Shown here: positions 1 to 38,958 of the stretch, in pieces
Numbering within the stretch: position 1 is the first letter of the stretch
How the letters are laid out: each line of letters starts with the position of its first letter
Assembly: GCA_035399665.1 (NCBI GenBank)
Contig: DAOPJM010000009.1
Span: forward strand, 1-60,031
DNA: 60,031 nt
Direction of reading: 5' to 3'
Source: Clostridia bacterium
GTDB taxonomy: Bacteria; Bacillota; Clostridia; Christensenellales; CAG-138
Program-made: the position numbers and the translations under genes
Notes under the pieces: model-generated
Database searches by the model: none
Told to the model about the DNA's origin: nothing
The model's input: only the letters and a program-made list of their open reading frames with translations

Positions 1-53
1 CAAAATCCGTTGGTAGCGATACCGTGTGGGTTCGAGTCCCACCTTCGGCACCA
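1..53 (+). tRNA. tRNA-Leu (probably CAA), 3' part only; 5' half lies outside the window
   Basis: Window opens in the anticodon loop (CAAAA), then long variable arm GGTA-GCGA-TACC, T-arm GTGGG-TTCGAGT-CCCAC, acceptor 3' strand CTTCGGC-A and encoded CCA at 51-53. Confidence 0.85.
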
Positions 54-62
54 AAAACGAAG

Positions 63-94
63 ATACGCTTGGATAATACTCCAAGCGTATTTTT
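63..94. terminator. Intrinsic terminator between tRNA-Leu and convergent hbd
   Basis: 11-bp stem ATACGCTTGGA/TCCAAGCGTAT, 6-nt loop, T-run after and A-run before. Confidence 0.8.
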
Positions 95-142
95 GATTGC
101 TCTATGAAAAGATGAGGATTCATTGCATCGAAGCTTCGATTG

Positions 143-1012
143 TCAGTTGTCAATAGGTCGCTTCCCGTTTATCGGGTCATAGACATAGAAGCCTTTTCCG
201 CTCTTAACACCGAGGTTTCCGCCGCGAACCATCTTGCGAAGCAACGGGCAGACTCTGTATTTACTGTCCTGGGTCTCGCTGTACAGCACGTCCATAATGG
301 CAAGGCAGACGTCAAGGCCGATAAAGTCGCCCAGTTCAAGCGGACCCATTGGGTGGTTAGCCCCAAGACGCATGGCAGAGTCAATATCAAAGATTGAAGC
401 TACTCCCTCCATTTTGATAAAAGCGGCCTCATTGATCATTGGAATGAGTATCCGATTGACCACAAAGCCCGCCGCTTCATGTACCTCAACGGGGGTTTTG
501 CCAATGCCTTGAGCTATGTCCTTAACGCTCTCAACCATCGTGTTCGGCGTATTCACGCCTGCGATAACCTCAACAAGCTTCATCCTGTCAGCGGGGTTGA
601 AGAAATGCATTCCGCAGACGGGGTGGGAGAGACCATTGCCTATCGCGGTTATGGATAGGCTTGAAGTATTGGTCGTGAATATGCACTCAGGCTTTGTTAA
701 GTTATCGAGCATAGCAAAGGTCTCACGCTTTACCTTGAGGTCTTCAAACGCCGCTTCGACGATAAGATCACAGTCTGCACACAGATCCTGCGCAAGACCC
801 GCGCTAATACGGCTCATTACGGCTTCAACCTGATCTAAGCTCATCTTGCCTTTCGCGACAAGTTTGTCATAGCCTTTCCGAATCTTTGCAAGGCTGTTGT
901 CAGCCCACTCTTGCTTGATGTCACAAAGCACAACGCTGTACCCCTCATACAGGGCGAACGCTTTGGCTATGCCTTGCCCCATGGTTCCCGCGCCAATGAC
1001 GCCTACTTTCAT
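143..1012 (-). CDS. hbd: 3-hydroxybutyryl-CoA dehydrogenase
   Basis: Rossmann VIGAGTMG, IVEAAFE, NTSSLS, GMHFFNP, GFVVNR, NHPMGPLELGDFIGLD motifs; follows crt. Confidence 0.93.
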   Translation of the reverse strand: MKVGVIGAGTMGQGIAKAFALYEGYSVVLCDIKQEWADNSLAKIRKGYDKLVAKGKMSLDQVEAVMSRISAGLAQDLCADCDLIVEAAFEDLKVKRETFAMLDNLTKPECIFTTNTSSLSITAIGNGLSHPVCGMHFFNPADRMKLVEVIAGVNTPNTMVESVKDIAQGIGKTPVEVHEAAGFVVNRILIPMINEAAFIKMEGVASIFDIDSAMRLGANHPMGPLELGDFIGLDVCLAIMDVLYSETQDSKYRVCPLLRKMVRGGNLGVKSGKGFYVYDPINGKRPIDN

Positions 1013-1024
1013 TTTACAGCCTCC

Positions 1025-1816
1025 TTAATTATTAGTGAATTGGGGTTTGGGCTTGGGCCTTTCCCTGCTGAGAAAGCAGGACATACCCTCGACCTGGTCA
1101 TGAGTTTCAAAGCAGTCGCCGAACATGGCTTCCTCTATGGCAAGACCCTGCCAAATCGACACCTGCATACCCTCGTTCATAGCTTTCTTGCATCCGCGTA
1201 CCGCGATGGGCGCGTTGGCTGCAATGCGTGCCGCAAGCTCCAAAGCCCTGTCCATCAGCTCTTCCTGCGGGTAGACCCAGTTGACGAGACCTATCCTCAA
1301 GGCCTGCTCTGCCGTGATAAATTCGCCGGTGAAAAGCATCTCCTTGGCAACTCCATGACCGACAAGCCTGATGAGCCGTTGCGTGCCACCAAAGCCGGGG
1401 GTGATACCTAAGCCTGTTTCAGGCTGACCGAATACCGCGTTCTCGGAGCAAAGGCGAATGTCGCAGCTCATGGCAAGCTCGTTGCCGCCGCCCAAGGCAT
1501 AGCCGTTCACGGCAGCAATGACGGGGAGGGGGAACCACTCAATCATATGAAAGAAGTCGTTGCCCATCTTGCCAAAAGCCGCTCCTTCCATCTTTGACAT
1601 CTTGGACATGGCGGCTATATCTGCGCCCGCAACGAAGCTCTTTTTGCCGGCTCCTGTGAGTATGACGCAGCGAATGACCTTTTGGTTTATCTGTGAAAAT
1701 GCCATGCGCAGCTCCGTCAAAACAGTCTCGTCAAGGGAGTTTAGCGTTTCAGGTCTGTCTATGGTAATTATTCCGATATTACCGCGGGATTCTGTTGTTA
1801 CATATTTCAAGCTCAT
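1025..1816 (-). CDS. crt: Crotonase / short-chain enoyl-CoA hydratase
   Basis: FVAGADI, AAVNGYALGGGNELAMSCDIR, FGQPETGLGITPGFGGTQRL; GGAGG RBS. Confidence 0.92.
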   Translation of the reverse strand: MSLKYVTTESRGNIGIITIDRPETLNSLDETVLTELRMAFSQINQKVIRCVILTGAGKKSFVAGADIAAMSKMSKMEGAAFGKMGNDFFHMIEWFPLPVIAAVNGYALGGGNELAMSCDIRLCSENAVFGQPETGLGITPGFGGTQRLIRLVGHGVAKEMLFTGEFITAEQALRIGLVNWVYPQEELMDRALELAARIAANAPIAVRGCKKAMNEGMQVSIWQGLAIEEAMFGDCFETHDQVEGMSCFLSRERPKPKPQFTNN

Positions 1817-1860
1817 TCCTCCATAAAGGCGACGTTTGTCCGCAGCGTCCTTATCATATA

Positions 1861-1889
1861 ATAATAACCTGTTGCATTTTGGCTGTCAA
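1861..1889 (-). promoter_or_regulatory. sigmaA promoter of crt-hbd
   Basis: TTGACA-17-TATTAT on the minus strand upstream of crt. Confidence 0.7.
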
Positions 1890-1929
1890 GAAAAATCAAT
1901 TGCATGAATGCAGGACTTATTACCCAAAG

Positions 1930-1966
1930 AAAGCCCGAAAATCGCTTTTGACGACTTTCGGGTTTT
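1930..1966 (-). terminator. Terminator downstream of the ABC exporter operon
   Basis: Imperfect stem AAAGCCCGAAAATCG/CGACTTTCGGGTTTT just past the stop at 2000. Confidence 0.6.
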
Positions 1967-1999
1967 TCACTTGTTATCTCTGTTTTGCCATGCCTATTA

Positions 2000-3826
2000 T
2001 CAAGACAGTTCAAACATTCCCATGTACAGCTGATAGTACTTACCACGCTGCTTTAGCAGACTGTCATGGTTGCCGCGCTCGATTATTTCCCCGTTTTCAA
2101 GCACGATTATTGCATCTGAGTTGCGAACGGTAGACAGCCTATGAGCTATTACGAACACCGTACGTCCCTTCATCAGCTCATCCATGCCATGCTCAATGAG
2201 CGCTTCCGTTCGTGTATCGATAGAGCTTGTTGCTTCGTCAAGCACCAGCACGGGCGGATCCACGACTATAGCCCTTGCTATGGCGATAAGCTGTCTTTGA
2301 CCTTGCGACAGGTTCGCGCCGTCAGCGGTCAACACCGTCTCGTAGCCTTGCGGAAGGTGCGAGATGAAGAAGTGAGCGTTGACGCGTTTCGCTGCGGCTA
2401 TTACCTCCTCGTCCGTTGCACCAAGCTTGCCGTAACGGATATTGTCCATGACCGAACCGGTGAATAGGTGCGTGTCCTGAAGAACCATTGCCAACGAACG
2501 CCTGAGGTCATCCTTCTTTATGTCCTTGACGTCTATTCCGTCGTAGGTAATACTTCCCTCCTGAACATCGTAGAAGCGATTCAATAGATTGGTGATGGTT
2601 GTCTTGCCCGCACCCGTAGAGCCTACGAACGCAAGCTTCTGTCCGGGCTTTGCATACAGCTCAATGTGCTTAAGCACCTCATGTTCTCCGTCGTAGCTGA
2701 AGCTTACATCGTGGAAACGTACGTCGCCGCGCAGGGGGACAGAGCCCTTGTCGGGGTACTGCCATGACCAGCTTTCGCCGTCGCGTTCAAGTGTTACAAC
2801 ACCGTCGTCAACCTCTGCGGGCATACCGATTAGGTTGAAGATACGCTCCGCGCCCGCAAGCGCGTTAAGTATGTTCGTGGCAAGCTGAGATATCTGCGTT
2901 ACTGGATTGCCAAACTGCTTAGAATATTGCAGGAAAGCGGCGAGAGTGCCTATATCCGTCTTGTCTGCTATGATGAGAGAAGTACCGACAACCGCGGTCG
3001 AGGCGAACAGGATGTAGCCGAGATTTCCCATGATGGGCATCAAAACCATGGAGTAAGCGTTTGCCTTTGAGGAGGCGTCTCGAAGAGTTTCGGTGATAAC
3101 GTCGAAATCTGCGCGGGCCTTGCTCTCGTGACCGAACACCTTAATCTCACGCTGCCCTTCGATCATTTCCTCAATATAGCCGTTTGCCTTCGCAAGCGCC
3201 TGCTGACGCTTTCTAAAGAAGCTCATGGATCGTTTTCCGATGATCTGGGTTACAAGCAGCATTAGTGCGAATATCCCCAGAACAAGTATGGTAAGCCGCC
3301 AAGAAAGCACTATCATCATAACCAGTATACCGATTACTGTGCAGCTGCTTGAAACTATGTTTGGCAAAGCGTTGCCTATAAGCTCTCTTAGGGCGTCGGT
3401 ATCGTTGGAGAAACGGCTCATAATCTCGCCGTGGGTACGCTCATCGTAATACTTTAAGGGCAGCTTTTGCAGGTGCGCGAAGGTGGTTTCGCGTATGTTC
3501 ATCAGGACATTAGTCGAAATGACGAGTAAGAAACGCTGCGATATATACGACAGCCCGACCGAGAGAGCGTAAACACATCCGATGAGTATCACATATCCGA
3601 TGAATTCGCTGTAATCGCTGCTCCCTGTGAGAAACATGTTTGTCGCTATGTTAAAGATGGGCTTCATTAGGTATGTACCTATGACTATGCCCACGCTGGA
3701 GAGCATCATCATCACAAGGGCGGCCAGCATACGGAAGCGGTAACGCCCTATATAGGATAAGAGGCTCAGCAGGGTCTTCTTTGTATCCTTAGGCTTGGAG
3801 AAGCCTTTGCGCATTGGTCCGGGCAT
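2000..3826 (-). CDS. ABC exporter subunit (TMD+NBD), canonical-site half of a heterodimer
   Basis: N-terminal TM helices, Walker A GSTGAGKT, signature LSQGQ, Walker B VLDEA, H-loop AHR. Confidence 0.9.
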   Translation of the reverse strand: MPGPMRKGFSKPKDTKKTLLSLLSYIGRYRFRMLAALVMMMLSSVGIVIGTYLMKPIFNIATNMFLTGSSDYSEFIGYVILIGCVYALSVGLSYISQRFLLVISTNVLMNIRETTFAHLQKLPLKYYDERTHGEIMSRFSNDTDALRELIGNALPNIVSSSCTVIGILVMMIVLSWRLTILVLGIFALMLLVTQIIGKRSMSFFRKRQQALAKANGYIEEMIEGQREIKVFGHESKARADFDVITETLRDASSKANAYSMVLMPIMGNLGYILFASTAVVGTSLIIADKTDIGTLAAFLQYSKQFGNPVTQISQLATNILNALAGAERIFNLIGMPAEVDDGVVTLERDGESWSWQYPDKGSVPLRGDVRFHDVSFSYDGEHEVLKHIELYAKPGQKLAFVGSTGAGKTTITNLLNRFYDVQEGSITYDGIDVKDIKKDDLRRSLAMVLQDTHLFTGSVMDNIRYGKLGATDEEVIAAAKRVNAHFFISHLPQGYETVLTADGANLSQGQRQLIAIARAIVVDPPVLVLDEATSSIDTRTEALIEHGMDELMKGRTVFVIAHRLSTVRNSDAIIVLENGEIIERGNHDSLLKQRGKYYQLYMGMFELS

Positions 3827-34000: not shown

Positions 34001-34964
34001 CAACATCGAAGTCGGTGCGGCGGTAAGTCCGCTGCACCGACTTGAATATCAAGATTTACTGCTTAAGAGCGGAATAAGCGACGAGCATGACACGGATTAC
34101 ACCGCACTCCTGTTCGATGACTTCGGGCTCCTTGCCTGCGGTTCGCTGAAGGGCAATATCTTAAAACAAATAGCGGTCGATCAAAGGGGCGAGGGCGAGG
34201 GAGCATGTGCCGCCGTCGTCAGCGCTTTGGTGACCCATGCCTATAACGAGGGCTTTGGCAAGCTCTTTTTGTTTACAAAGCCGCAGCACAGAAGGCTGTT
34301 TGGCTCAATGGGCTTTTATCCGCTTGTAGAAAGCGGCGATATGCTTTTCATGGAAAACATGAAGAACGGACTTTCGGACTTTCTTGCGACCATACCCAAA
34401 AAGGATGGTTTTACGGGATGCGTGGTATGCAATTGCAATCCAATGACATACGGGCATCTTTTCCTTATCGAAACTGCTGCAAGGGAGTGCGACAGAGTAC
34501 TTGTGTTCGTGCTGTCGGAGGATGCTTCGGAGTTCTCTACGGACGTTCGCATGTCGTTTGTCAAGAGCTGTACCGAAGGGATACCCAATGTCGAGGTTTA
34601 CGCAAGCCGAGAGTACCTTGTTTCACGCGCCACCTTCCCTACATACTTTTTGAAGTCAACCATCGACGTCGAAAACTCGATAAGCGAACTGGATTTGCTG
34701 CTGTTTGCAAAGCGTATAGCACCGGAGTTGAATATCAAGCGTCGCTATGTCGGCACAGAACCCTACTGCGCCATAACTGCAAAGTATAATGAAACCATGA
34801 AACGCATACTCCCGAAATTTGGTATCGAGGTGCGAGAATTGGACCGCAAGGACGGTATAAGCGCAAGCAGGGTGCGCGAACTCCTGCATCAAGGCAAGGT
34901 TGATGAGATTCGCGGTCTTGTTCACCCCATAGTATATGATTACTGCAAAGATCACTTTAACTGA
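33993..34964 (+). CDS. citC: [Citrate (pro-3S)-lyase] ligase
   Basis: GNAT-like N-terminus, NCNPMTYGH, SRATFPTYF, RYVGTEP, ISASRVR; alternative ATG at 33987. Confidence 0.92.
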   Translation: MNNNIEVGAAVSPLHRLEYQDLLLKSGISDEHDTDYTALLFDDFGLLACGSLKGNILKQIAVDQRGEGEGACAAVVSALVTHAYNEGFGKLFLFTKPQHRRLFGSMGFYPLVESGDMLFMENMKNGLSDFLATIPKKDGFTGCVVCNCNPMTYGHLFLIETAARECDRVLVFVLSEDASEFSTDVRMSFVKSCTEGIPNVEVYASREYLVSRATFPTYFLKSTIDVENSISELDLLLFAKRIAPELNIKRRYVGTEPYCAITAKYNETMKRILPKFGIEVRELDRKDGISASRVRELLHQGKVDEIRGLVHPIVYDYCKDHFN

Positions 34965-36189
34965 GATGCTCGACTCGAGAGAGCGCAGAGCCGATAAACA
35001 ACGCAGATTAATTGAAACCTTCAACTGCGCTCTTATTTGCTTTACCATGAATATCGCGGGCGAAGTGAAACGCAGCAGCTTGACCGATTTTGCTTTCCGC
35101 TGCGGTGAATCTGCGATAATCAATAAGCTGGGCGATCCGTTGTACTATGAGGATTGTTCCTCACACACAGGTAACGAGAGCTTCTTTGTATACGACAATT
35201 ATACTGCTTCGCAGCTGAAGCATATAACCGAAAGCATTGAGGACGGCTCGCCCGTGGGCAGGCTTTATGACATGGACGTTTTGGACGCCGAACAAAATAA
35301 ACTTTCAAGAGTAAGTCCAAGAAGCTGCATAGTCTGTAACGGCACGGCCTCGGTATGCGCCAGAAACCGCGAACATGGACTGAATGCTGTTGTTGATAAG
35401 ACTAATTCAATACTCTTGAGCTTTGCGTCACAAGAGCTTGCGCGGATTGCCGTTGAAAGCCTTATCGCAGAGGTTCACACAACGCCGAAGCCGGGTCTTG
35501 TCGATGAAAACAATACTGGTTCACATAATGACATGGATGTGTCCATGTTTGAGTGCAGTGCAAACGCTCTCAATGATAGTTTTGTTCAAGCGACTATGGC
35601 GGGTCTTGCCGGTCAGCCAAGCTTCGAAGCGCTGCGACAGATTGGATTGTGTGCAGAGCAAGCCATGAATTCGGCAACCTGCGGAGTGAACACCCATCGC
35701 GGCGCAATCTATTCGTTCGTTTTACTGTTATACGGCTATGGAAGAGCCTTATCCTTTGGGAGCGATCCCTTTGAATGTGTAGAAGTCATGTGCGAAGGTG
35801 AGCTTAAAAGGATCGTATACGGAACTAACGGGGAGGATGTGCGTTTGCGTTATGGCGCCAACGGAGCGAAAGCCGAAGCTATGCGTGGATTTCCTACCGC
35901 AAGAGAAGCGGCAAAGCTGCTTGCCAATAATGAGCCGTTCAGCGTACTGCTTTGGATTATTTCTCAGACTGAGGATACCAACGTTTTGCACAGGGGCGGG
36001 GTAGAGGGGCTGAATTTTCTTCGCCAAGAATGCGTAAGAATATGGGTTATGAGTGCAGAGCAACAAAAAGAAGCGGCGCTTCAACTCGATAAGGAGTGTA
36101 TTAAGCGTCGCATAAGTCCTGGTGGGTCTGCCGATATGTTGGCTATGGCCCTGTTCATTTCAAAGGCTGACCTTTTTGTCAGTCGATGA
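34936..36189 (+). CDS. citXG: Fused CitX (holo-ACP synthase) + CitG (triphosphoribosyl-dephospho-CoA synthase)
   Basis: N-half EMLDSRERR, TMNIAG, GRLYDMDV, RSCIVC...CARNREH; C-half EVHTTPKPGLVD, NTHRGAI, ISPGGSAD. Confidence 0.88.
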   Translation: MITAKITLTEMLDSRERRADKQRRLIETFNCALICFTMNIAGEVKRSSLTDFAFRCGESAIINKLGDPLYYEDCSSHTGNESFFVYDNYTASQLKHITESIEDGSPVGRLYDMDVLDAEQNKLSRVSPRSCIVCNGTASVCARNREHGLNAVVDKTNSILLSFASQELARIAVESLIAEVHTTPKPGLVDENNTGSHNDMDVSMFECSANALNDSFVQATMAGLAGQPSFEALRQIGLCAEQAMNSATCGVNTHRGAIYSFVLLLYGYGRALSFGSDPFECVEVMCEGELKRIVYGTNGEDVRLRYGANGAKAEAMRGFPTAREAAKLLANNEPFSVLLWIISQTEDTNVLHRGGVEGLNFLRQECVRIWVMSAEQQKEAALQLDKECIKRRISPGGSADMLAMALFISKADLFVSR

Positions 36190-36745: not shown

Positions 36746-37873
36746 TTAAGCCTCAAAGAGGCTCAATTCAGTTTCAAGTGAGAAGAGCTGTATCAACTCG
36801 CCATTGATACGAACCTTGATGTTGGCGCCATATGGGAAGCCCATACGGTATTCCTGTGGCAGGTTGATAATCGGCAGGCGTAGAATAGCATCAGTGCCGA
36901 GAGCGTCGGTGTGCAGGTACAGCTCGCTGCCCATCATTTCGCATACATCTACGGTTGCGGGAATGGTGTTGGGCTGGTTGCCGACATGATCAATCTCGGT
37001 ATGCTCAGGGCGAATGCCCATAGTGACCTTCTGAGTGGTTACGCCGTTGTTTCGTAAAATCTGCTGTTTTGTCTCAGGCAGATCTATGCGATAGCCCGAA
37101 AGGTCAAGATAATAGCTTTTGCCGTCACAAATCAGATCCGCATCGAAGAAGTTCATTTGCGGTGTGCCAATGAAGCCCGCGACAAACTTGTTGTGAGGAC
37201 GATCGAAAACATCCGTAGGCGTGCCAATTTGCTGGACAAAACCGTCCTTCATGATGACGATACGATCACCTAAGGTCATGGCCTCTGTCTGGTCATGAGT
37301 AACATAGATGAAGGTGGTATCAAGGCGGTGTCTGAGCTTGATGATTTCGGCACGCATCTGATTACGAAGCTTAGCATCAAGGTTGGAGAGCGGTTCATCC
37401 ATGAGGAATACCTGAGGATCGCGAACGATAGCTCTTCCGATTGCGACACGTTGACGCTGACCGCCTGACAAAGCCTTGGGCTTCCTGTCAAGCAGCTCGG
37501 TGATGCCGAGTATTTCAGCCGCCGCGTTAACCTTTTCTTTGATTTCCGCCTTGGGAACCTTGCGCAGCTTAAGCGCGAAAGCCATATTCTCGAAAACAGT
37601 CATGTGAGGATAGAGCGCGTAGTTTTGAAAAACCATTGCGATATCTCTGTCCTTGGGGGGAACGTCATTAACGAGACGGTCACCGATGTACAGTTCGCCA
37701 TCGGTGATCTCCTCAAGGCCTGCCACCATACGAAGCGTAGTGGACTTACCGCAGCCTGAAGGACCTACCAGTACGATGAATTCCTTGTCCGCGATTTCAA
37801 GATTGAAATCGTGTACGGCTACGACGTCTTTGTCATAGACCTTCTTGAGATTCCTGAGTGATAAAGTTGCCAT
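36746..37873 (-). CDS. msmX: Multi-sugar ABC importer ATPase (MsmX/MalK/UgpC family)
   Basis: [44 protein letters not shown]-terminus. Confidence 0.93.
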
Positions 37874-38074
37874 TTGTCTCGACTCTAATGACGCAGCATC
37901 CGCTTTGCGTCACCTTGCAGGCGCGTGCTTTATCGCGCTTGCATTACGACAGGTCTCCACACTGCCGCACCGCGAGTCATGCGGGACTTCCATCCTTTCA
38001 TTTTACGCAGGTCGCGGCAAGGAAGTGGAGTGCCGCGAGGCGCTTAATTACGGGTACTATATATAACAATACCC
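37874..38074 (-). ncRNA. Structured ~200-nt 5' leader of msmX (candidate cis-regulatory RNA)
   Basis: At least five hairpins and mutually exclusive long-range pairings between the predicted +1 (~38074) and the ATG (37873); details in findings. Confidence 0.55.
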
Positions 38075-38079
38075 TCATG

Positions 38080-38108
38080 AATGTATCATAAGGGCAAGGC
38101 TTTGTCAA
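38080..38108 (-). promoter_or_regulatory. sigmaA promoter of msmX
   Basis: TTGACA-17-TACATT with extended TG. Confidence 0.7.
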
Positions 38109-38121
38109 GGCTAATTTATAG

Positions 38122-38625
38122 TTAAAGAATGACTTTGAACAGATCGTAAAATTTCTTGTAGAACTCAAAATCGTTGTAATAATAATCATAATTCGCGCTT
38201 GAGAAAGCCATATAAAGGAGCACGAAGTATAAAAGGAGCATCAGAGTAAAGACAGCTCCGCATACCACACCCGCAATTGCCATTCCCCTTAATGGTCTGC
38301 CTTCGATTCTGTTTGTTTTTGCAAGACCGACAGCCGCAAGTATAAGCCCAATCGGAGCAAGCCAAAAAGTCATCGTCAGAACAAATCCGGTAATGATTAG
38401 GCCTCTCGGCGCGGATGCTTTAGAGTTTTGTGAAATAACCGCGTATGGCATATTCGGCTCCGCTCCGCTGTCAACATTCAACTGAACGGGAGCAACAACG
38501 CTTGGCGCGGTGTAAGATACTAAATTGGAGGAAGTCGCACGGGTTTCTGTCTCTACCGTTGCTCCGCAGGAGGGGCAGAATCTCATATTATCTTGGAGCT
38601 CACAGCCACAATTTCGACAGAACAT
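38122..38625 (-). CDS. Zinc-ribbon + DUF4190-like membrane protein
   Basis: MFCRNCG...FCPSCG, then TM segments with GLILAAVGL...G...AIAG motif; GGAGG RBS before ATG 38625. Confidence 0.75.
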   Translation of the reverse strand: MFCRNCGCELQDNMRFCPSCGATVETETRATSSNLVSYTAPSVVAPVQLNVDSGAEPNMPYAVISQNSKASAPRGLIITGFVLTMTFWLAPIGLILAAVGLAKTNRIEGRPLRGMAIAGVVCGAVFTLMLLLYFVLLYMAFSSANYDYYYNDFEFYKKFYDLFKVIL

Positions 38626-38764: not shown

Positions 38765-38857
38765 TGGCGGAGAAAGTGGGATTTGAACCCACGCACCGGT
38801 CAACCCAGTCTACTCCCTTAGCAGGGGAGCCCCTTATAGCCACTTGGGTATTTCTCC
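38765..38857 (-). tRNA. tRNA-Ser (GCT)
   Basis: Acceptor GGAGAAA/TTTCTCC, anticodon loop CTGCTAA, long variable arm, T-loop TTCAAAT, encoded CCA. Confidence 0.95.
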
Positions 38858-38870
38858 GTATTTAACGATT

Positions 38871-38958
38871 TGGCGGAGATGGTAGGATTTGAACCCACGG
38901 ATGTTTTCACATCAACGGTTTTCAAGACCGCCTCCTTAAACCCCTCGGACACATCTCC
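38871..38958 (-). tRNA. tRNA-Ser (TGA)
   Basis: Acceptor GGAGATG/CATCTCC, anticodon loop TTGAAAA region, long variable arm, T-loop TTCAAAT, encoded CCA. Confidence 0.95.

Follow-up and report, generated by a model that had tools for sequence, protein, structure and literature searches.

Three structured RNAs from the 5′ UTRs of malK genes, malK-I, malK-II and malK-III, have been described as candidate cis-regulatory RNAs (Weinberg et al. 2017, NAR 45:10811, PMC5737381); in that survey the structures are reported to lie near the Shine–Dalgarno (SD) sequence, malK-II and malK-III are set apart from malK-I as distinct structures, and few ligands are said to have been tried on malK-I, none of which bound. 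The msiK RNA, like malK-II and malK-III, shares with malK-I the status of a candidate cis-regulator in the 5′ UTRs of the same gene family, and a literature search found no later work on malK-I. In translational riboswitches with pseudoknotted aptamers, such as SAM-II and preQ1-II/III, the SD is sequestered within the aptamer or next to it. Split ribosome-binding sites that are rescued by an intervening structure are described for the T4 genes 38 and 25, in which, according to that account, a single hairpin constitutively cuts a distance of 22–27 nt to 5–11 nt (PMC3014915).

The window analysed here, a stretch of 60,031 nt, contains a leader of the first of these families. A cmscan comparison of the window with Rfam 15 placed malK-I (RF03069) at 37868–38048 on the minus strand with 138.6 bits (gathering score 60.3; E 2.7e-26), and the alignment runs the full length of the model (positions 1–181 of 181). 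As this is a full-length match at more than twice the gathering score, the leader is not a new class, and we regard it as all but certain that it is an ordinary, full-length member of malK-I, the cis-acting 5′-UTR element of a MalK/MsmX-type ATPase gene. The initial annotation of this DNA had suggested that the leader was possibly a new class and had itself named an Rfam search as the check; that search refutes the suggestion, the family having been known since the 2017 survey. It had also expected an Rfam match to confirm function, which does not follow, as malK-I is still an orphan candidate whose few tried ligands did not bind. Among the Rfam models compared with 37700–38250 at E values up to 1, malK-II, malK-III and msiK gave no match, and only malK-I and a sub-threshold narK match (RF03032; 37821–37871, minus strand; 20.4 against 43.2 bits, E 0.15) were returned. 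The latter covers the first msmX codons, and the aligned part of the narK model has no base pairs; it probably reflects the conserved coding region for the ABC-ATPase N terminus rather than an RNA.

All hallmarks of malK-I are present in the window leader, namely P1 with its CUCCAC loop, a linker of the AAAGGAGG type, the four-way junction and the core GCGGUGCGGCAGUGUGGAGACCUG, and the conserved junction core GCGG-UGCGGCAGUGUGGAGACCUG is found together with P2, P3, P4 and P5. Four pairs are non-canonical with respect to the model (two in outer P1, one in outer P2 and one in P4). The window has GGAUGG where the consensus linker has GGAGG and adds a 5′-terminal hairpin beyond the model; nothing essential differs. 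The ATG at 37873 corresponds to model positions 176–178, the final positions of the model being AUGGCA. The features of the locus, from promoter to gene, are as follows.

38080–38108, minus strand: candidate sigma-70-type promoter TTGACA-17-TACATT with TG upstream of the −10 (10/12 hexamer matches)
38052–38074, minus strand: 5′-terminal hairpin GGGUAUUGU/AUAGUACCC, −11.1 kcal/mol, outside the malK-I model
38007–38043, minus strand: P1 hairpin, inner 8 bp UCGCGGCA/UGCCGCGA, loop starting CUCCAC (38030–38025) (Rfam alignment)
37990–37998, minus strand: distal SD-like AAAGGAUGG (family consensus AAAGGAGG) in the A-rich single-stranded P1–P2 linker, −11.8 kcal/mol with the 16S 3′ tail
37981–37984, minus strand: 5′ strand of helix H, CCGC, which pairs with GCGG in 96.7% of cells
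37974–37979, minus strand: P2 5′ strand UGACUC, part of the closing stem of the four-way junction (Rfam alignment, covariation)
37970–37973, minus strand: GCGG, assigned to junction J2/3 by the Rfam fold, also the 3′ strand of helix H (G76 and G78 invariant)
37945–37969, minus strand: P3 hairpin UGCGGCAGUGU-GGAG-ACCUGUCGUA, carrying GUGGAG at 37960–37955 (98.4% paired)
37917–37942, minus strand: P4 hairpin GCAAGCGCG...CGCGCCUGC (89% paired, compensatory changes at 9/9 pairs)
37887–37914, minus strand: P5 hairpin GGUGACGC...GCGUCAUU with loop GCGGAUGC (consensus GCGGAGGC; 93% paired)
37880–37885, minus strand: P2 3′ strand GAGUCG, ending 6 nt before the AUG at the usual place of an SD (Rfam alignment)
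36746–37873, minus strand: msmX/malK-type sugar ABC ATPase of 375 aa (ABC_tran, OB_MalK and TOBE_2 in Pfam)

The product of msmX scores 477.9 bits against NCBIfam NF008653 (UgpC subfamily, cut-off 432) and 407 bits against the MalK equivalog, under the cut-off of that model. It is flanked by a nitroreductase-family gene downstream and a gene for a zinc-ribbon/DUF4190 membrane protein upstream. The name of orphan sugar-ABC ATPase under which the gene had been annotated is a fair label, since the domains fit, no permease or binding-protein gene is adjacent and the closest paralogue in the genome has merely 48% identity. Further out, a fused CitX-CitG gene (citrate lyase holo-ACP synthase and triphosphoribosyl-dephospho-CoA synthase; 34936–36189, plus strand) overlaps the end of the opposite-strand nitroreductase gene. 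Two tRNA genes (38768–38857 and 38874–38958, both minus strand) separate the DUF4190 gene from a strong promoter-like site with TG (TTGACA-17-TATACT, 39000–38972, minus strand), and a full-length raiA RNA (RF03072; 40311–40532, minus strand; 186.8 bits, gathering score 101.3) precedes the leader by about 2.3 kb in the same orientation.

From the position of the candidate msmX promoter, a consensus match alone, a +1 near 38074 is predicted. The hairpin that had been noted at this +1 (GGGTATTGT/ATAGTACCC, 38074–38052) is indeed there, although it does not belong to the conserved motif: a stable hairpin just 5′ of the model occurs in only about one third of 59 homologous flanks, several homologues have promoters that lie 12 nt or less from the start of the model, and it was rejected as a conserved part on both grounds. 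Given its presence in only this fraction of the flanks the hairpin is accessory, and it possibly serves as a 5′-end stabiliser. A UUUGGG(N3-5)CCCAAA hairpin placed 0–2 nt 5′ of the malK-I model recurs in five leaders of one genome family; these leaders have no good promoter within 130 nt, and their 5′ ends may be processed or protected. In the window, an 11-bp terminator-like hairpin (GCCCUUAUGA...UCAUGAGGGU, followed by UUGUUAUAUA; 38070–38096, minus strand) overlaps the −10 of the msmX promoter and has a GGG in common with the +1 hairpin. It may act as the terminator of the zinc-ribbon/DUF4190 gene upstream (stop at 38122).

Homologous leaders came from three sources. Of 401 genomes belonging to the same order, 40 yielded 61 malK-I matches, a single genome having as many as 4; 4 more came from about 380 genomes of other orders of the class, and 16 from the 80 closest MsmX loci of GTDB genomes (Flavonifractor, Faecousia, Oscillospiraceae and others), labels that place the window in the Oscillospirales. 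A MalK/MsmX ATPase with 56–78% identity to that of the window begins at the AUG of the model, or in L052 at an AUG shifted by a P5 insertion, in 58 of 61 family matches (44 genomes), and the source genome itself contains a single copy of the motif according to a genome scan. In three leaders P5 contains additional inserted hairpins (about 40 to 85 nt), and in L052, one of the three, the true AUG, at locus position 1766, is thereby displaced past the end of the Rfam match.

The 221-nt window leader folds better than all 200 of 200 dinucleotide shuffles (z −3.5). RNAalifold applied to a plain MAFFT alignment recovers P2 to P5, and when the 61 leaders were aligned to a model built from the MAFFT/RNAalifold alignment, 87.5% of the cells of the Rfam structure were paired, against 64% for shuffles and about 38% for slid controls, with compensatory changes at 48 of 50 pairs. 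These include 13 of 13 pairs of P1 across 61 homologues and 8 of 8 outer pairs of P5; in the P1 loop, CUC is invariant and CA nearly so among 54 homologues. Across 61–77 related leaders, compensatory changes are seen in three features, the Rfam four-way junction, a pseudoknot and helix H. Every string quoted in the initial annotation was found where it had been placed, and the test of structural conservation that it proposed gives a positive answer, in that the malK-I fold is conserved with compensatory changes in 61 homologues. The 8-bp stem TCGCGGCA/TGCCGCGA (38038–38012) with loop CTCCACTTCCT is the inner part of Rfam P1, the GCGCG/CGCGC hairpin is P4 and the TGACGC/GCGTCA hairpin is P5, both of the latter covarying.

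The switch that had been drawn from the same sequence fares differently. In that scheme a long-range helix, CUCCAC..UGCCGC with GCGGCA..GUGGAG, excludes P1 and P3, while TAATG/CATTA and TGTC/GACA close the 3′ hairpins, and the long-range helix does appear in the unconstrained minimum free energy fold of the window (−70.8 kcal/mol, against −63.6 kcal/mol for the Rfam fold scored without a pseudoknot term). However, when the 15 pairs specific to it (UGCCGC:GCGGCA, TAATG/CATTA and TGTC/GACA) were counted in 61 homologues, 47.3% of the cells could pair, against 47.0% for shuffles and 34–48% for slid controls, with no excess covariation. As the pairing equals the control level, the long-range and closing helices are window-specific, and they were rejected as indistinguishable from shuffled and slid controls; the two closing helices are not conserved, the true closing stem being P2 (UGACUC/GAGUCG), and we consider this form of switch highly improbable. 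The P1 stems covary freely, so that complementarity to the conserved GCGGCA has arisen by chance in the window copy, and the helices came to be noticed because they are strong enough here to win the unconstrained fold.

The complementarity of the P1 loop is conserved with one of the two partners proposed for it. That with GGAAGT (37991–37986) is specific to the window; that with GTGGAG (37960–37955) corresponds to a loop–loop pseudoknot between CUCCAC in the P1 loop and GUGGAG in the P3 loop, with 6 of 6 Watson–Crick pairs in the window and 99.4% pairing across the 61 leaders. Two of its pairs change from CG to UA in at least three lineages (L045; L051 and L057; L065), and different lineages show the variants CUCCAU:AUGGAG, CUCUAU:AUAGAG and CUCUAC:GUAGAG. 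Like helix H and the displaced SD discussed below, the pseudoknot was traced in the homologue set gathered here.

Helix H is formed by CCGC and the GCGG that constitutes J2/3 in the Rfam fold. Its compensatory changes comprise GC to CG (L019 and L023) and CG to UA (L062, L063 and L065), with U.G intermediates, and its variants are CCCC:GGGG, CCGU:ACGG, CCGU:GCGG and, in one genus, a shifted GCCC:GGGC; the covariation depends on a few lineages. Counted jointly, helix H and the pseudoknot reach 98.3% pairing, and several lineages have compensatory changes in them. The loop of helix H measures 5–9 nt and contains the P2 5′ strand, so that on geometric grounds H and P2 should be mutually exclusive. 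On comparative sequence grounds, helix H against P2 is therefore the candidate for a switch, instead of the helix drawn earlier, and we place the chance that the two act as one at about even; they might also form sequentially during folding, and not as a regulated switch.

The conserved architecture bears on the simplest alternative, that the leader does not switch and acts constitutively, as an mRNA stabiliser or as a fixed enhancer or attenuator of translation. Such a role is compatible with the orphan status of malK-I and with the 5′-terminal hairpin seen here and in about one third of the homologues. A near-invariant junction, a pseudoknot and a helix in conflict with P2 are, however, typical of sensing RNAs and not of stabilisers, and orthologues get by without such a leader, which together make a constitutive role improbable.

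The other recurrent property of these leaders is the position of the SD. The start-proximal SD of the window was called weak from the outset, and its energy with the 16S 3′ tail is indeed only −4.2 kcal/mol; the distal SD-like element ends 117 nt from the AUG, and GGAGG is exact at this place in 64 of 73 leaders. In motif-bearing genes, the median of the best SD energy in the 20 nt before the AUG is −2.9 kcal/mol for one group (n=55) and −2.4 kcal/mol for another (n=16), against baselines in the source genome of −3.0 for random 20-mers and −7.15 for the first ATGs of long ORFs. In contrast, all 63 of 63 msmX orthologues without the motif have a proximal SD of −7.5 kcal/mol or better (median −11.1), and none of 20 such motif-less loci has another Rfam family before the gene at gathering score. 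A junction domain of about 100 nt thus lies between the sole strong SD and the start codon in motif-bearing leaders, with the following spacings.

P1 end to SD: median 10 nt (IQR 9–11)
SD end to P2 5′ strand: median 14 nt (IQR 11–15)
P2 3′ strand to AUG: median 6 nt (IQR 5–8; range 4–12)
SD end to AUG, linear: median 119 nt (range 91–165)
SD end to AUG with P2 closed: median 20 nt (IQR 18–22; range 13–28)

Two other roles for the distal GGAGG were considered. An upstream ORF starting from it was rejected, as the alignments show no conserved start codon 4–12 nt past GGAGG, where the positions instead form the covarying P2 5′ strand; a GUG...UAA mini-frame in P3 changes its residues together with compensatory pair changes, which indicates selection on the RNA and not on a peptide. 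Sequestering of the SD by the P1 loop (CUCC with GGAG) would comprise only 4 bp in the consensus, with no flanking complementarity, and appears unsupported; its median probability is 0 in nested-fold ensembles, which cannot score pseudoknots of this kind.

Together, these features lead us to think it likely that control is exerted at the level of translation, and we also favour, with somewhat less assurance, the fuller reading in which P2/helix H switching of a split ribosome-binding site brings this control about. With the AUG 4–12 nt past P2 there is no room for a terminator, and none was located on the minus strand within the leader, as had been noted before. The earlier description of the leader as a translational riboswitch or protein-binding RNA is in this general sense apt, a cis-acting and probably translational element fitting the data, while the particular switch proposed for it is unsupported. 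The mechanism we envisage involves two folds. In the first, P2 would be closed and the junction formed, the P1 loop would dock on the P3 loop (GUGGAG) by the pseudoknot, and about 20 nt would separate the SD from the AUG; the second would have CCGC paired with GCGG and P2 open, with about 120 nt between SD and AUG. Which of the two prevails would depend on a ligand or protein stabilising the junction, and in the polarity we favour the folded junction would turn translation on as a split ribosome-binding site. As an on-switch of this kind, the split site is a tentative proposal. Its strict form, in which malK-I is a sensor that permits initiation only when a ligand or protein locks the junction, with CCGC:GCGG as the off-state, is perhaps slightly more doubtful still. 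Were it true, it would represent an expression-platform logic that, to our knowledge, has no description for any validated riboswitch.

Both groups of precedents resemble this arrangement in part. As in SAM-II and preQ1-II/III, a pseudoknotted 5′-UTR fold adjoins the ribosome-binding site and there is no terminator; unlike in those riboswitches, the SD of malK-I remains within a linker, separated from the start codon by the aptamer-like domain. By analogy with T4 genes 38 and 25, the SD is too far from the AUG along the linear sequence and the intervening RNA structure would shorten the gap; the apparent difference is that in malK-I a four-way junction of about 100 nt would cut the distance from about 119 to about 20 nt, and that it has a sensor-like look. 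The residual single strand of about 20 nt is long for an SD–AUG spacer and counts against the split site. In the window the distance with P2 closed is 17 nt (11+6), compared with a T4-type functional spacing of about 5–11 nt, and a search for further base pairs of the 5′ spacer with the 3′ tail, such as might shorten it, found none (median z +0.34).

That same spacing, long for a working ribosome-binding site, speaks for the opposite polarity, the chief competing reading: an off-switch by occlusion. Closed P2 would pair the positions −12 to −6 and set a bulky domain 6 nt from the AUG, helix H would de-repress, and the distal GGAGG would not be a juxtaposed SD but a standby or loading site for the 30S subunit, or part of the tertiary fold. 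The P2 3′ strand does take up the usual SD position, and the SD sits in an A-rich single-stranded linker apt for standby binding. Opening P2, however, leaves no SD within 20 nt of the AUG in 71 of 71 leaders, while the motif-less orthologues all have strong ones; the open state would be poorly translated in a Firmicute because its AUG lacks an SD within 20 nt. Occlusion also leaves unexplained a strong SD kept 9–11 nt from P1. We judge it rather less probable than the split site acting as an on-switch.

What is sensed may also be a protein. Bound to the junction, to P3 or to the GGAG loops, it would match msmX translation to the demand of the permeases; it could be free MsmX, by way of its C-terminal OB/TOBE domain, or a different regulator of the carbon state. 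The few small molecules that the discoverers are reported to have tried did not bind (PMC5737381), the gene product MsmX is a shared subunit of important stoichiometry and carries OB_MalK and TOBE domains, and genomes with up to 4 paralogous ATPases have a leader of its own for each. Yet a near-invariant core in front of paralogues that are 60–70% identical fits a common small ligand equally well, and the obvious binder of GGA loops, CsrA, is absent: no csrA was found in the 97.9%-complete genome with PF02599, the E. coli, B. subtilis and T. maritima controls being positive, and CsrA was on this ground excluded as a binder of the three GGA motifs. A protein-responsive leader is thus unlikely in our estimation, a little more so than occlusion.

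The distribution of the motif offers some context for its role. Two genomes carry four malK-I copies each and another four carry three, and in these multi-copy genomes each leader precedes its own MsmX-type paralogue with 60–72% identity to the ATPase of the window. Eight of the ATPases have a Lys/Gly-rich insertion of about 25–30 aa after approximately residue 10 (...YPYAGGKAEKKKQAKGTGEK... in one of them), which the ATPase of the window does not have. In the five motif-bearing loci examined, the leader is preceded by nanA/nagB/nagA-like or peptidase genes, and not by permeases. In three loci of the Flavonifractor type, leader and msmX follow immediately after nanA-like (DHDPS family), nagB-like and nagA-like genes (about 20–2810, plus strand). 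Such neighbours hint at a link to the use of amino sugars or sialic acid.

The displaced SD, seen in all motif-bearing genes and in 0 of 63 motif-less ones, the conflict between helix H and P2 and the covarying pseudoknot are testable leads on the mechanism of malK-I. In gut Oscillospirales (such as Flavonifractor, Faecousia, Oscillospiraceae) the motif precedes the gene for the shared ATPase by which many sugar importers are driven, and since malK-I would control this subunit, the signal to which it responds would serve these abundant gut anaerobes as a master input for their carbohydrate uptake.
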